Shown here: positions 12,971-18,599 of the stretch, in pieces
Layout of the letters: each line of letters opens with the position of its first letter
How positions within the stretch are numbered: position 1 is the first letter of the stretch
Assembly (NCBI GenBank): GCA_028020825.1
Contig: CM051638.1
Span: 14,336,861 to 14,400,860 of the forward strand
Origin: Podargus strigoides
Taxonomy: Eukaryota
Reading direction: 5' to 3'
DNA length: 64,000 bases
Translations under genes and position numbers: made by a program
Notes under the pieces: generated by a model
Told to the model about the DNA's origin: nothing
Databases searched by the model: none
The model's input: only the letters and a program-made list of their open reading frames with translations

Positions 12971-13580
12971 TGCTATTCCTACAGTGTACTGATTTTTTAA
13001 TTGTTATTTTATGTACTTACTTATTTTACACATTGGTTTTACACACTGTTTCTGGGAAAGAGCAAGTAAAGACACCCATCTGTGTGCTTTGCCTTGGCCT
13101 GGAACGTGTTTGCCAAACCACCGAGGAGCAGGGTTTGTTTCTGCTGGTGTAGTTTGAACCTTCTCGGCTGTCGTCAGTGGCTGGCGCTCTAGAGGTGGTG
13201 ACAACACCATCATTCCCCTGAGTTTGCTGCAATCACAGAATCACAGAATCACAGAATGTTAGGGATTGGAAGGGACCTCAAAAGATCATCTAGTCCAATC
13301 CCCCTGCCAGAGCAGGAACACCTAGGTCAGGTCACACAGGAACATGTCCAGGCGGGTTTGGAATGTCTCCAGAGAAGGAGACTCCACATCCTCTCTGGGA
13401 AGCCTGTTCCAGGGCTCTGTTACCCTCACTGGGAAGAAATTCTTCCTCACATTTATGTGGAACCTCCTATGTTCCAGCTTACACCCATTGCCCCTTGTCC
13501 TATCATTGGATGTCACTGAGAAGAGCCTGGCTCCATCCTCATGACACTCACCCTTTACATATTTATAAACATTAATGAGG

Positions 13581-16268
13581 TCACCCCTCAGTCTCCTCCA
13601 AGCTAAAGAGACCCAGCTCCCTCAGCCTTTCCTCAGAAGGGAGATGTTCCACTCCCTTCATCATCTTTGTGGCTCTACGCTGGACTCTCCCAAGCAGTTC
13701 CCTGTCCTTCTTGAACTGGGGGGCCCAGAACTGGACACAATACTCCAGATGTGGCCTCACCAATGCAGAATAGAGGGGAAGGAGAACCTCTCTTGACCTA
13801 CTAACCACTCCCTTTCTAATACACCCCAGGATGCCATTGGCCTTCTTGGCCACAAGGGCATATTGCTGGCTCATGGTCATCCTGCTGTCCACCAGGACCC
13901 CCAGGTCCCTTTCCCCTACACTGCTCTCCAGCAGGTCAGCCCCCAACCTGTACTGGCACATGGGGTTGTTCTTCCCCAGATGCAAAACTCTACACTTGCC
14001 CTTGTTGAATTTCATTAAGTTTTTCCCCGCCCAACTCTCCAGCCTATCAAGGTCTCGTTGAATGGCAGCACAACCCTCTGGTGTGTCAGCCACTCCTAGT
14101 TTGGTGTCATCAGCAAACTTGCTGAGGATACATTCTGTACCCTCATCCAAGTCGTTGATGAAGATATTAAACAACACCGGTCCCAGTACCGACCCCTGAG
14201 GGACTCCACTAGTCACAGGCCTCCAACTAGACTCCGTCCCATTAACCACAACTCTCTGGCTTCTTCCCTTCAGCCAGTTCATAATCCACCTCACTACCTG
14301 ATCACCAAACCCATCCTTTATCAGCTTATCTACGAGGATGCTGTGGGAGACAGTGTCAAATGCTTTACTGAAGTCAAGATAAACCACATCTACCGCTCTA
14401 CCATCATCTATCCACCTAGTTATTTCCTCATAGAAGGCAATAAGGTTGGTCAAACATGACTTACCCTTAGTAAAACCATGTTGACTGCTCTTAATGACCC
14501 CCTCATCCTTGATGTGCCTAGAGATAGTGCCAAGAACAAGCTGTTCCATCGCCTTTCCAGGGATGGAGGTGAGGCTGACCGGTCTATAGTTACCCGGGTC
14601 CTCCTTCTTGCCCTTCTTATAGATTGGAGTGACATTTGCTATCCTCCAGTCCTCAGGCACCTCTCCTGTTCTCCATGACTTACCAAAGATGATGGAGAGT
14701 GGCCTAGCAATGACCTCTGCCAGCTCCCTCAGCACCCTTGGGTGCATTCCATCTGGTCCCATTGATTTATGGATATCCAGATTGCTCAACTGATCCCTAA
14801 CCCAATCCTCATCTACCAAGGCAAACTCCTCCTTTATCCTGACTTCTTCTGGGGCTACAGGGATCAGGGGCTCCTGGGGAAAGCCTGCAGGAGTAAAGAC
14901 AGAGGCAAAGAAGGCATTCAGCACCTCTGCCTTCTTTATATCCTCTGTCTCTAGGGCACCCCCCTCATTCATCAGTGGGCCTATATTGCCTCTAGTGTTT
15001 GTTTTATTAGCTATGTATTTGAAAAAGCCCTTTCTATTGTCCTTGACCTGGCTTGCAAGGTTAAGTTCTGAGGAGGCCTTAGCTTTCCTAATTGCCTTTC
15101 TACATCCTCTGACAACTGTCCTATATTCCTCCCAAGTGACTAGCCCCTCTTTCCATGATCCATAAATTCTTTTTTTCCACCTAAGTTTGCCCAGCAGTTC
15201 CTTGTTTAACCATGCTGGTCTCCTAGCTCCCTTACTTGATTTCATACCCATTGGGACGCTCTGATCCTGAGCTTGCAAGAAGTGGTCCTTGAATGTTGAC
15301 CAACTATCTTGAGCCCCTTTACCATCTAGCACCCTGTCCCGTGGGACTTCCCTTAACAATTGATTAAGGAGGCTAAAGTTGGCCCTGCGGAAGTCCAGGG
15401 TTCTGGTCTTGCTTGGTACTCTATTCCTCCCACACAGGATCCTGAACTCCACCATCTCATGATCACTGCAGCCAAGGCTGCCATCGACCATCAGTGCTTC
15501 AACAAGACCCTCCTTGTTGGTAAGTACGAGATCCAGCAGCGCTCCTCTCCTAGTCGGCTTATCCACCATTTGCATTAAGTAGTTATCATCAATGCACTGG
15601 AGGAACCTCCTAGACTGTGAATGGCTGGCTGTGTAAGTCTTCCAGCAGATATCGGGGTAGTTAAAATCCCCCATGAGGACCAAGGCCTGTAGTTGTGAGG
15701 CTGCTTTCAGCTGCCTGTAGAAAGCCTCAGCAACTCCCTCATCCTGATCAGGAGGTCTGTAATAGACCCCCACAACTGTATCGCCCATACCTGCCTGCCC
15801 CTTAATTCTTACCCACAGACTTTCAACTTGCCCCTCATCATCCCCTGGAGAAAACTCAATACATTCAAGTTGCTCCCTCACATAAAGAGCAACTCCACCA
15901 CCTCGCTTCACTGACCGATCTTTCCTAAAAATGACATAGCCATCCATGACCACATTCCAGTCATGTGAGCTGTCCCACCATGTCTCTGTAATTGCCACCA
16001 GGTCATAACCTTTAGACCGCACACAGACCTCTAACTCCTCCTGTTTATTCCCCATACTGCGTGCATTGGTGTACAGGCATTTCAGAGAGCAAGCAGAGCG
16101 CACTGGTGGGACCCCTGGGAGGCAGGAGGCCTTGTGGTCAGGGCCTAAACATCTATCCCTTCTCTTCAATGATCGAAAATCCTTCCTAGACCACCTTCCT
16201 TCAGGCCCTGGCATATTGCTCTTGGGCTTGTCCCTAACAGACCCAGTTGTCTCCCCTTCCCCCTTCAC
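13581..16268 (-). CDS. CR1-D ORF2: apurinic-like endonuclease plus reverse transcriptase, 895 aa open. The last ~64 aa continue in another frame at 13322..13516 after one frameshift near 13580.
   Basis: EEP endonuclease motifs are present ([36 protein letters not shown]). RT blocks are present ([52 protein letters not shown]). C-terminal conserved blocks are present ([18 protein letters not shown]). Confidence 0.85.
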
Positions 16269-16270
16269 AT

Positions 16271-17341
16271 CTAGTTTAAAGCCCTCTCAATGAGCCCTGC
16301 TAACTCCTGCCCCAAAAGCCTTTTCCCCCTCTGGGACAAATGCATTCCACCTGCCATCATCAGGCCAGGTGTCTCATAGAGCAGCCCATGATCAAAGAAC
16401 CCAAAGCCCTGCCTTTGGCACCAGTTACGCATCCATTCATTTATCTGTGAACTCTTCCTGCTTATCTCTTCACCCATTCTTGCAGGAGGTATGGAGGCAA
16501 ACACTACTTGCACTCCAGACCCCATAACCAGCCGTCCCAGGGCCCTTAAGTCACTCTTCATTGCCCTTACACTCCTTGTAGTAATTTCATCCCTGCCATC
16601 CTGAAAAAGCAGCAGTGGGCAGTAATCGGAGGGCTTTACAAGATCAGGGAGTTTCCTTTTAATGTCTCTAATCCGAACCCCAGGGAGGCAGCAGACTTCC
16701 CTGTGGGATGGGTTCGGTCGCCAGACGGGCCCTTCTGTTCCCCTCAGAAGGGAGTCGCCCACCACAATTACCCTCCTTTTCTTCTTAATTGAAGAAGTCC
16801 TGAGGCGTCGGGATGACTGACAAGCCTTAGGTGATTCAGGAGACTGATCTACCCCTCCAACTTCATTTACTTCTCCCTGAAGTTCCAAGGCCTGGTACCT
16901 GTTACTCAAGGGCAACTGGGAGGGTGAAGGGGGTTGGGATGGTTTTTGCCTGCCTCTCCGCGGACGGACCACCCTCCATTCCTCCCCGTCTCCTGAACCC
17001 TCTGCTTCTGTCTGATGACAGGAGGGGGGGGGATCCATCACTTGCCCACCCTTTTCTAACTGCCCCTGCCTCAGGGTGAAGCTCCACCAATCTATTTCTC
17101 TTTCACAATCTCTAATAGTTCTAAGTCTTTCTACCTCCTCCATCAGTTCAACCACCTGCCCGAGCAGATCATTTACCTGCTCGCACCGCACACACGCGGT
17201 GTCACTGGCTCCCTCCAGTACCAGTGCCAGGCTCAGGCATTCGCTGCAGCCAGAAACCTGCACGGCCGCATGTCTGGTCGGGGGATCTGTCTGAGTCCCC
17301 ATATTCTTTTTCCCAAGGGTTTTTGGGCGCGTTGCAACCAT
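16271..17341 (-). CDS. CR1-D ORF1, 356 aa, with a C-terminal esterase/SGNH-like domain
   Basis: The sequence reads ...[64 protein letters not shown].. (GDSL-type motif) after an N-terminal coiled-coil-like region, as in CR1/L2-type ORF1. Confidence 0.75.
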
Positions 17342-18599
17342 GTTCTATGCGGTCTAAGGTCTATCTAGCTAATCCTCTCCTTGCGACGCTCTCCGCGCGC
17401 TGCTCTCCTCGCGCTTGCCTCTCCGTAGGCCAGCCGCCGCTCTCTGCTCCGCGTGCCGCTTGCTCTGAGGGGAGCTGCCGAGATGGCCGCTTTTAAAGTT
17501 TGCCGCGGCTCTCAGTCACGCCCCCTGCCACGTCAGCCTTTCGGTATCTCTTGAATTTTTCTCAGGATTCCCGCTCAGACTCGGGTTTCCTTGCTCTATC
17601 CCGGCTTCACCGTCTCCGGGAAGCCCGGCTCCTTCTCAAACCCTCAGCAAACACCAACAGCAAAAGCGAACAGCACTCGCCGCAGCCGCCCCACCGCTCC
17701 CACAGCCGCCGCTCTCTGCTCCGCGTGCCGCTTGCTCTTGCAATATGCAGCCTTTGTGACCAGATCCAGAAGTTCCATGAGTACAAACAGACTGCACCCT
17801 GCACCAGCCCCGTGGGTGATTGTGGATAGGATTTTGTAGAGTGATGAAGTCCACTGATGGGATACTCATGACATGAGACATTAAACAGCCTCTTGCAGTT
17901 ATGTGATGATAGATGCTTCTGGGGGAAGTTTGTGCACTGCAGGAATACTTGGATACTGGACAGCTGCTCTTCTGGCTTTTCTTCCTTGTATTTTTTTTCT
18001 TTCAGTTTTGTAGCACAGTGGATTGCTGCTCCCCTTTTAAGATTTCACAGCAAAGCTCTGCTTTCAGAGCCCGTTCTGCTGCTGGGGAATGTATGAAAGA
18101 GGCACTTGCAGGTGATCGAATTTACCTTTTCAGTCTTGGTTACCTTTGCTGTCTTATGCCGTTACGTGTTCTTGGGGATGGGAGTGCTTCCTGCTGAATG
18201 CAGAGTTGAAAATTGTCTTGGCAGGAAATGATCTACTGTCATCTCTGAGTCAATCATGGTGCTAAGCTGCGTGCCGTAGAAACTGCTCTGTTGCGAGTCA
18301 GCAGGCAAGGCAAACCGGAGTTCATTCAGTTGCATTGTCATCTTCAGCCATGGAGGTCTGCAGTTCTCTTGCTAACGAACAAAACCTCATCCCATACAAA
18401 TGAAAGCTGGATGGCTTTTGGAGATGAACACAAACTTTCTGTCATCTCCCAGGTGGTTCCATTTCACACCTTACTTGAAATTGCTGGACTGTCATTACTG
18501 GGAGAACAAGTGAAGGCTCAGTCATGTCTTTGGTTTGCCAAAAGATGTCCTGCAAGAATAAATGTACAGCCTGAGCTTGGGAGCTAAGTCTCGTAGACA

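Follow-up and report, generated by a model that had tools for sequence, protein, structure and literature searches.

A full-length CR1 element of Podargus strigoides with an inherited 5-nt deletion in ORF2 and a conserved, frameshift-like cassette at its ORF1/ORF2 junction

A stretch of 64,000 nt from the genome of Podargus strigoides (assembly GCA_028020825.1, contig CM051638.1, positions 14,336,861 to 14,400,860 of the forward strand; hereafter the window) contains, on its minus strand, a long interspersed nuclear element (LINE) of the CR1 family that is full-length and whose second open reading frame (ORF) is broken once, near its 3' end. The locus raises the question of whether such a copy is a source of new insertions, a source disabled by a single private change, or a by-product of other elements, and with it the more general question of how the ribosome reaches ORF2. 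The element spans 17738..13234 (4,505 bp) and is a genuine, young and complete CR1 that belongs to a well-known kind. A preliminary description of the window had overstated its rarity: full-length CR1s, many of them intact, are abundant in many birds (PMC8665684), and this element itself is routine and disabled. The added value of the locus lies chiefly in a cassette at the ORF1/ORF2 junction that is conserved and resembles a −1 frameshift site, and to a lesser extent in a deletion that belongs to a lineage rather than to a copy and in a 5' terminus that is restated within the element. The coordinates of the features are collected in Table 1.

The letters TAGATG at the end of ORF1 had been read in the preliminary description as an ORF1 stop contiguous with an ORF2 start. 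The letters are present, but the ATG (16270-16268) lies in the ORF1 frame with a TGA directly after it, and other CR1s do not conserve it. The junction was compared in ten elements: the Podargus strigoides element, those of swift and hummingbird, a Logan contig, Lagopus, Anas, Hirundo, Grus, Morphnus and the turtle Natator. The block GCTTTAAACTAG is invariant in all ten, and every junction reads AG(G/A) GCT TTA AAC TAG, that is, U_UUA_AAC in register and then the stop. The seven codons upstream of the cassette vary at synonymous sites, and variation is also seen in the 4-6 nt after the stop (ATGT, ATAT, ATAG, AGTC, GTTT, GCTC, GTTCAC), beyond which the sequence is nearly invariant again in a purine tract. 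As a background, nine other in-register X_XXY_YYZ heptamers occur in the ~3,600 ORF1 codons (0.25% per codon). Nine of nine elements have no stop in the −1 frame before the endonuclease motif is reached, over 33-88 codons each from the heptamer onwards and 436 in total, and the other two frames contain 2-6 stops each over the same span. Five of these nine elements have no Met between the heptamer and the endonuclease motif, and no AUG or near-cognate start is conserved in the −1 frame after the stop, where GUG, AGG, UCG, UUG and UCA are seen. To judge from these reading frames, entry into ORF2 has to take place at the stop of ORF1 and cannot depend on an AUG. Two properties of a −1 frameshift cassette, a conserved heptamer in register and a −1 ORF that is open without an obligatory start, are thus found at the CR1 junction, and the persistence of the cassette unchanged in ten bird and turtle copies implies, on this comparison, its conservation since the divergence of birds and turtles.

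The simplest mechanism for such an entry would be −1 programmed ribosomal frameshifting on U_UUA_AAC_UAG. Ribosomes would shift by −1 on the heptamer, which holds the last two sense codons of ORF1, and would yield an ORF1-ORF2 fusion, ORF2 not being started at the ATG that follows the ORF1 stop. That the ORF2 protein (ORF2p) of amniote CR1s is produced as a fusion of this kind appears to us an evenly balanced proposition. Two results weigh against it, since no convincing conserved stimulatory RNA structure was found, the RNAalifold consensus amounting to only −6.96 kcal/mol, and single-sequence folds are no more stable than those of shuffles. The same lack of a stimulatory structure speaks for termination-reinitiation, or another non-AUG entry at the ORF1 stop, in which GCUUUAAACUAG together with the purine tract would serve as the reinitiation signal. 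Precedents exist in SART1, which uses UAAUG stop-start coupling, and in L1, where ORF2 translation is unconventional (PMC3894237). The conserved block, however, matches a canonical X_XXY_YYZ heptamer exactly and stands in the right register, the −1 frame after the stop offers no conserved codon at which to reinitiate, and reinitiation after a long upstream ORF is considered improbable in the same review (PMC3894237). Reinitiation is therefore kept as a possible mechanism, distinctly less probable than frameshifting. The searchable literature, outside the scope of which lie the older Haas 1997, Kajikawa 1997, Kapitonov and Jurka 2003 and Haas 2001, yielded no paper that ties CR1 to frameshifting or a slippery site. 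CR1 is unmentioned in a 2016 recoding review, and a 2013 review of the biogenesis of non-LTR (long terminal repeat) retrotransposon proteins does not mention frameshifting and treats ORF2 initiation as an open question (PMC3894237). The cassette was also sought, as contaminating bird DNA, in bacterial and archaeal genome contigs and in viral contigs, with 0 matches in both. A separate observation concerns a small hairpin located about 28 nt after the ORF1 stop (window 16245-16223), which recurs in several CR1 families (L007, L009 and L010) despite sequence change (CUGGG...CCCAAG versus CCAGG...CCUGG) in an otherwise poorly conserved protein segment; it is too distant for a classical stimulator.

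The break in ORF2 had been placed at about 13,580, with the tail readable in the adjacent frame. A single frame break followed by a readable tail is indeed what the element contains, but the lesion is a 5-nt deletion at about 13596, and the tail that is out of frame comprises 86 codons (13582..13325, ending ...FLCDLT*) and not the last ~64 aa, a figure obtained when only the part beyond this frame's first GTG is counted. When four outgroup copies are aligned, the undeleted form is seen to be TTGGAG[AAGAG]GAGACT, and the relatives retrieved and examined at this site read TTGGAGAAGAGGAGACT, coding EKRRLRG. The shifted tail matches the DLINVYKY...SPSLE..FK.RLD of all relatives, with a ratio of non-synonymous to synonymous substitution rates (dN/dS) of 0.18 versus swift, a value that is unable to date the constraint relative to the deletion. 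The same deletion is found in a second, 5'-truncated copy of the same subfamily in the window, whose sequence is identical across the lesion and whose truncation point and flanks differ from those of the full copy. Swift and hummingbird CR1s, and older ones, do not have it, as seen at L001, L002, L003 and L005 and in the old CR1 at 18.7-21.3 kb. Since the identical deletion occurs in an independent copy, the parent lineage already carried it, and since two separate loci agree, the frameshift is not the sequencing error that the preliminary description had allowed for. The 5-nt deletion is inherited from the source lineage, and is neither private nor an error. A break private to the full copy, or one created by sequencing or assembly, would fit with its being the sole frame-breaking lesion in the element; yet it would leave the same 5-nt gap at 5185-5818 to recurrent slippage, and none of the five related copies with the same GAGAAGAG context (L001-L005) carries it. 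By our calculation the likelihood of two of two and none of five under recurrence peaks at 0.015, so that inheritance is favoured at least ~65-fold, and a private or artefactual break is very improbable. Twin priming and segmental duplication were rejected as origins of the sibling copy: the contents of the two copies overlap, they differ by 6% and their flanks are different. The point at which the sibling is truncated coincides exactly with a 13-nt tandem duplication (CACAGATAATTTG x2, window 5160-5185). The metagenome contigs of the Joint Genome Institute (JGI) were scanned for the deletion-specific motif with 0 matches.

The wear of the full copy bears on its age and on its competence. Polarised against four outgroups over 634 columns, private changes number 7 in the full copy and 15 in the fragment, with 6 shared-derived and 16 ambiguous sites; majority assignment of the ambiguous sites gives ~10 versus ~23. 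In a two-outgroup comparison the full copy has 8 private changes, 5 non-synonymous and 3 synonymous, and the non-synonymous ones strike conserved residues (C803Y, E to G, Y to S, V to D, K to Q). Inspection for additional disabling mutations gave no second frame break, but ORF2 is replaced at 5 of 224 columns that are invariant in 17 homologues, the deletion site excluded (L113I, D180A, F230Y, W310R, C803Y), and ORF1 at 3 of 58 (C207W, Y241C, F265L). For comparison, a swift copy is replaced at 1 of 216 invariant columns in ORF2 and at 0 of 55 in ORF1. From the polarised private changes and the invariant-column replacements, the unselected change accumulated since the copy was last under selection is estimated at roughly 0.5-1.3%. 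Simulation of ORF survival with CpG-weighted substitutions plus indels gave a chance that both ORFs stay open of ~0.1-0.2 at 0.5% decay, 0.01-0.05 at 1% and <0.003 at 2%; both are open here over 3,753 nt, which is unlikely beyond ~1% neutral decay, the copy having been picked out for its open ORFs. The 5' untranslated region (UTR) has 37 CpGs, a ratio of observed to expected CpG of 1.05, and as yet no difference between its two 36-nt repeats. The copy is therefore young yet not pristine. Of the suggestion that it is either very young or one mutation from a source element, the fair youth stands, from the open ORFs and the CpG ratio, and the proximity to a source does not, with an inherited deletion and eight invariant residues replaced.

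With the last 86 codons of ORF2 left out of frame by the inherited deletion, the full copy is almost certain not to be competent as a source, barring a bypass of the deletion in translation. ORF2 is not complete through the conserved C-terminus in one frame (stop 13583-13581), and replacements are present at residues of ORF1 and ORF2 that are invariant in the family. How a lineage with this deletion came to leave two insertions can be accounted for by bypass within the lineage, by copying in trans, or by taking the age difference between the copies as noise, and with two copies and p = 0.13 no firm choice is made among them. Trans-mobilised dead copies are rated most likely, at about one chance in two: intact CR1s, recognising the shared 3' hairpin and octamers, would have provided the ORF2p that in trans made a few copies from the transcript of a newly deleted source, and the open ORFs would reflect the short time since the deletion. 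CR1-type reverse transcriptases (RTs) are thought to recognise the 3'UTR (PMC4316615), which permits trans-mobilisation, and the wear at invariant residues looks neutral; a model of equal age for both copies is not rejected (p = 0.13). Equal age, however, means a divergence of ~3% each, at which intact ORFs over 3.7 kb are very improbable, and ascertainment by intact ORFs only partly rescues that improbability. For this reason the more coherent reading of the ages is that the fragment is older and that the deletion lineage kept replicating, with ORF1 and ORF2 selected for some time after the deletion. Against that reading it has to be set that the asymmetry between the branches is not significant (binomial p = 0.13) and that the age estimates are based on one sibling copy and 634 bp. 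Autonomy of the deletion lineage, with the full copy as a potential source, would go a step further: either the truncated ORF2p suffices, or a +1 shift at GGG_UGA_C supplies the C-terminus, the P-site tRNA-Gly re-pairing, as we reason it, from GGG to GGU so that the next codon, GAC, would restore ...G-DLINVYKY. The arguments for it are the presence of the deletion in two independent insertions of different apparent age (7-10 versus 15-23 private changes), the 1,251 ORF1 and ORF2 codons open in the younger copy (no-stop chance <0.01 at 3.3% decay), the position of the 0-frame stop directly after a codon able to re-pair in +1, the identity of both copies from −20 to +28 around the UGA, and the documentation of corrective frameshifting and of a frameshift-dependent non-LTR gag, that of HeT-A (PMC5009743). 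The case nevertheless comes from two copies with a non-significant asymmetry, the private changes of the full copy (5 non-synonymous to 3 synonymous, at conserved residues) look neutral, no stimulatory element is shown, the local fold having a z of only −2.0, and the re-pairing at GGG_UGA_C is our own reasoning from the sequence; autonomy is accordingly considered improbable. An AlphaFold2 model of a duck ORF2p used as a proxy (P0030, 22-sequence alignment; mean predicted local distance difference test score, pLDDT, 68.8, with residues 849-901 below 50) was uninformative on the role of the missing C-terminus.

Table 1. Positions in the window of the features of the CR1 element and of its sibling copy
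Feature	Position	Strand	Remarks
Candidate target-site duplication ATTGCA, 5' copy	17739..17744	-	adjoins the first base of the 36-nt terminal repeat
Extra 272-nt 5' unit	17467..17738	-	opens with a perfect copy of the 36-nt 5'-terminal sequence (17738-17703)
Canonical 5'UTR	17342..17466	-	starts with the second copy of the 36-mer (17466-17431)
ORF1, 356 aa, intact	16271..17341	-	N-terminal Cys motif, coiled region, esterase-like (GDSL/SGNH) domain
U_UUA_AAC heptamer, candidate −1 ribosomal frameshift site	16274..16280	-	in ORF1 register, directly before the stop UAG (16273-16271)
ORF2 frame, 895 codons	13581..16268	-	−1 relative to ORF1; open from 16286; first in-frame ATG 16214; ends at premature TGA 13583-13581
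Purine tract GAAGGGGGAAGGGG	16253..16266	-	begins 8 nt after the heptamer; nearly invariant in the ten-element comparison
63-nt in-frame insertion, ORF2 N-terminal linker	16114..16176	-	absent from swift and hummingbird copies
APE-type endonuclease domain	15459..16022	-	Pfam Exo_endo_phos, aa 83-270, E 1.7e-12
Reverse transcriptase domain including the FADD motif	13980..14609	-	Pfam RVT_1, aa 554-763, E 1.3e-31
5-nt deletion site, TTGGAG^GAGACT	13593..13599 (~13596)	-	four-way and six-way alignments
ORF2 conserved C-terminus, 86 codons + stop, now in the +1 frame	13322..13582	-	TAG at 13324-13322
3'UTR hairpin	13262..13302	-	minimum free energy fold pairs GGGGAUUGG with CCAAUCCC; hairpin and microsatellite are the CR1 3' signature (PMC4316615, PMC8665684)
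Octamer array (ATTCTGTG)x3	13234..13257	-	Tandem Repeats Finder; an additional ATT overlaps the duplication
Candidate target-site duplication ATTGCA, 3' copy	13228..13233	-	adjoins the octamer array
Sibling copy, independent, 5'-truncated, same subfamily and same 5-nt deletion	5185..5818	+	93.4% identity over 638 bp; different flanks; own 4-bp deletion

The anatomy of the element is that of a canonical amniote CR1. A full-length CR1 is defined by two ORFs, an endonuclease (EN) and an RT, and a 3' hairpin followed by an octamer microsatellite, (ATTCTRTG)n, without poly-A (PMC4316615; PMC8665684). Here a 5'UTR is followed by the intact ORF1 and by an ORF2 frame in which an APE-type EN and an RT are encoded together, and the 3'UTR ends with a hairpin and then octamers, poly-A being absent. 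The preliminary description was borne out in the main by these ORFs, their domains and catalytic motifs, the hairpin and the octamers; a 356-aa ORF1 and an 895-codon ORF2 frame are present on the minus strand as it had described, and so are the diagnostic 3' octamer repeats, for which Tandem Repeats Finder reports ATTCTGTG at 13257-13231 (period 8, 3.4 copies, 100% matches). The 3' end reads ...GGGGATTGGACTAGATGATCTTTTGAGGTCCCTTCCAATCCCTAAC, then (ATTCTGTG)x3, then ATT. An Rfam search of 13000-18000 gave no match at E up to 1. ORF1 is of the esterase type, with an N-terminal zinc-finger-like motif; VVGDSLLRG and CxxC...CxxC are visible in it, and the match to Pfam Lipase_GDSL_2 is weak (21.9 bits, under the cut-off of 32.9). 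Its length equals that of the swift ORF1 (356 aa), with protein identities of 74-76% to swift and hummingbird and of 50-76% across bird ORF1s, and UniRef gives many of its more distant homologues in birds the name SGNH hydrolase-type esterase. The catalytic motifs of ORF2 are intact in translation, TNARS, ITETWW, GDFN and SDH in the EN and FADD in the RT, and the RT domain matches the RT structures of LINE-1 ORF2p and of R2. ORF2 is 87% identical in protein to the intact 963-aa ORF2 of the swift (dN/dS 0.19), its 3' part shows 85-86% identity to swift and hummingbird homologues, and in DNA it is 89% identical to two intact swift copies, ORF1 being 83% identical. Homologues of both ORFs come from birds and turtles, barring an ORF2 match in a lizard (Podarcis), an ORF1 match in a bacterial assembly and metagenome contigs. 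With strong bird and turtle homologues for both ORFs, their lengths are not due to chance. Two annotation anomalies were met among the homologues: a bird CR1 ORF1 on a 2.9-kb contig is deposited as 'SGNH/GDSL hydrolase family protein [Klebsiella pneumoniae]' (among P0315 and P0067), which is likely host-DNA contamination, and many Grus japonensis CR1 ORF2 proteins (P00xx) carry the name 'mitochondrial enolase superfamily member 1'.

The extent of the element, described before as 13230-17800 (~4.57 kb), is correct as regards its full length, but its 5' end is better placed at 17738. A perfect direct repeat of 36 nt recurs at a spacing of 272 nt, and the 36-mer can be aligned, beginning with its first base, to the 5' terminus of the full-length chimney-swift copy L003, AGAGCACGCGGCAG... 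Therefore 17466 is the canonical CR1 5' end, and the extra 272-nt unit restarts with the same terminus. The extra unit has no homologue at the swift or hummingbird loci, and JGI metagenome contigs scanned for the 36-mer gave 0 matches. Towards its end the unit contains a stretch resembling a cAMP response element (CRE), TGACGTGG (17535-17528), a GC box and TTTAAAA (17497-17491), 31 nt before the inner 36-mer; read by eye, these may be promoter motifs. The search for target-site duplications that the preliminary description had proposed gave a 6-bp candidate, ATTGCA, at 17744-17739 and 13233-13228. It is the sole word of six or more bases shared by the two junction regions, and the insertion probably created it, in which case the uninterrupted target would have read ...GGCTGCAT-ATTGCA-GCAAACTC... 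A caution is that one shared 6-mer is expected by chance between the junction regions, and only the exact placement at both ends of the element is unusual (chance ~0.002 by our estimate). We give a probability of about 0.8 to the account as a whole, in which the element is a little-decayed, target-primed full-length CR1 insertion with an inherited deletion, from a subfamily that is nearest, among the retrieved relatives, to the CR1s of chimney swift and Anna's hummingbird.

The insertion had been thought to lie within the pol gene of an endogenous retrovirus (ERV). This holds for one side: only the 3' flank is ERV-derived, where a retroviral RNase H (Pfam E 1.3e-11, running down from 12738) is accompanied on the same strand by remnants of an integrase, but the 5' flank (17745-18670) has no retroviral signal. 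The 490 nt between the RNase H match and the CR1 are assigned neither to the ERV nor to CR1, and no Pfam match was obtained in the three minus-strand frames of 17740-18800 or of 12700-13235. The first 36 kb were searched for the missing half of the ERV, and neither a Y[VMIL]DD motif nor an LTR pair was found. A genuine duplication would mean that the ERV had already been truncated when the CR1 inserted, and that the insertion did not delete the missing half. The 5' flank leads into an older, oppositely oriented CR1 at ~18670-21351, and the element landed in a repeat-rich region beside a satellite array. At least seven older CR1 fragments, at 18670-21351 (+), 2495-4474 (-), 22735-23368 (+), 24840-25182 (+), 29877-30673 (-), 9422-9739 (-) and 4892-4944 (-), with 64-82% DNA identity or 32-56% protein identity to the full copy, make the region a graveyard of CR1s and ERVs. 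Each of the two copies of the deletion-bearing subfamily is immediately followed on its 3' side by a retroviral segment that is truncated at its 5' end and has the orientation of the copy; these segments are at 5814-8300 (+), with RNase H, integrase and the transmembrane part (TM) of env, and at 13231-10900 (-), with RNase H and integrase. Within the first 36 kb, no RT motif and no LTR pair belongs to either of the two ERVs, which are unrelated in DNA. The paired arrangement may be a coincidence in a repeat-dense region or may come from a shared mechanism of rearrangement; its origin as one duplicated unit or at homologous pol positions was rejected, the ERVs being unrelated in DNA and the junctions lying ~66 and ~200 codons upstream of the RNase H motif. 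A GC-rich block at 24000-37800 (58-67% GC), with a 110-bp tandem repeat at 34708-34919, separates the repeat field from a 51-bp satellite (consensus CAGCAGGCCTAGGGGGACACACACAGTGGGTGAGGGAACAGTGCTGGGGGA) that occupies the window from 37840 to 64000 (>26 kb) and continues past its end. The satellite has at least 514 copies (86% matches, 62% GC, strong G skew) and produces many spurious long ORFs, and its presence suits a low-recombination region in which long repeats persist.

What the locus contributes goes beyond the copy itself. The junction comparison leads to a specific and cheaply testable hypothesis of ORF2 expression, −1 frameshifting on U_UUA_AAC, which, if true, would answer how translation of a LINE ORF2 starts for the dominant LINE of birds and reptiles. 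A frame-breaking lesion can be a trait of a lineage rather than of a copy, and this affects the counting of elements that are 'one mutation from active'. By the definitions of Galbraith et al. 2021 the copy is both full-length (EN, RT and 3' structure) and intact (EN and RT in a single ORF); the usual definition of an intact CR1 ignores the C-terminal 86 codons and would score this copy as intact. A second and weaker hypothesis, if true, would give a subfamily that spread with a 5-nt deletion and needs a +1 shift at GGG_UGA_C to complete its ORF2p. Moreover, CR1 transcription starts are poorly defined, since nearly all copies are 5'-truncated (PMC4316615), and a restated terminal 36-mer in a unit that contains a TATA-like stretch offers a handle on them.

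Among known systems the closest to the element in a named species are the CR1s of chimney swift and Anna's hummingbird, birds in which many full-length CR1s have been counted (PMC8665684). The CR1s of the chimney swift Chaetura pelagica (KN125818.1, KN126162.1; L003, L004) have the same architecture, with a 356-aa ORF1, the same GCTTTAAACTAGATGTGAAGGGGG junction, a 5' terminus AGAGCA(A/C)GCGGCA, a 3' hairpin and octamers, the octamer being ATTCTATG in place of ATTCTGTG. They differ in that their ORF2 is complete, 963 aa with EKRRLRG, and in lacking the 5-nt deletion, the 63-nt insertion in the linker and the extra 272-nt unit at the 5' end. Of the two copies (L003 6787-11013 and L004 6946-11013), one has its whole 5'UTR and one is cut off 20 nt ahead of the ORF1 ATG. 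Over 4,068 bp they show 99.85% identity, and both ORFs are intact in each, which is evidence of very recent CR1 activity in this species. Abundance is general: full-length CR1s, many intact, number from hundreds to more than 1,000 in many bird genomes and reach 1,125 in that of a parrot (PMC8665684). The CR1 of chicken (Haas et al. 1997/2001 and Burch et al. 1993, cited in PMC4316615 and PMC2734521), likened here by description, the nearest galliform junction examined being that of Lagopus, is likewise ~4.5 kb long, with a 5'UTR, two closely spaced ORFs, a zinc-finger-like ORF1, EN and RT in ORF2, and a 3' hairpin and octamer without poly-A; its 5'UTRs are subfamily-specific and most of its copies are 5'-truncated. 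The CR1 junction resembles that of retroviral Gag-Pol and of coronaviruses, with their U_UUA_AAC, in that an in-register heptamer ends the upstream ORF, the downstream ORF is in −1 and has no start of its own, and a variable spacer precedes a conserved 3' element. In CR1 this candidate 3' element is a linear purine tract, and no pseudoknot or hairpin was found at the usual 5-9 nt. Repeated 5' units with promoter-like motifs, to which the extra 5' unit can be compared, are known as the monomers of mouse L1. Some elements of the CR1 group that have no ORF1 also carry repeating subunits of 100-500 bp near their 5'UTR (PMC13343379). The likeness lies in a repeated 5' unit that restates the terminus and bears promoter-like motifs; in the Podargus strigoides element the repeat amounts to 1.13 units, 272 nt followed by a 36-nt restart, and ORF1 is present.

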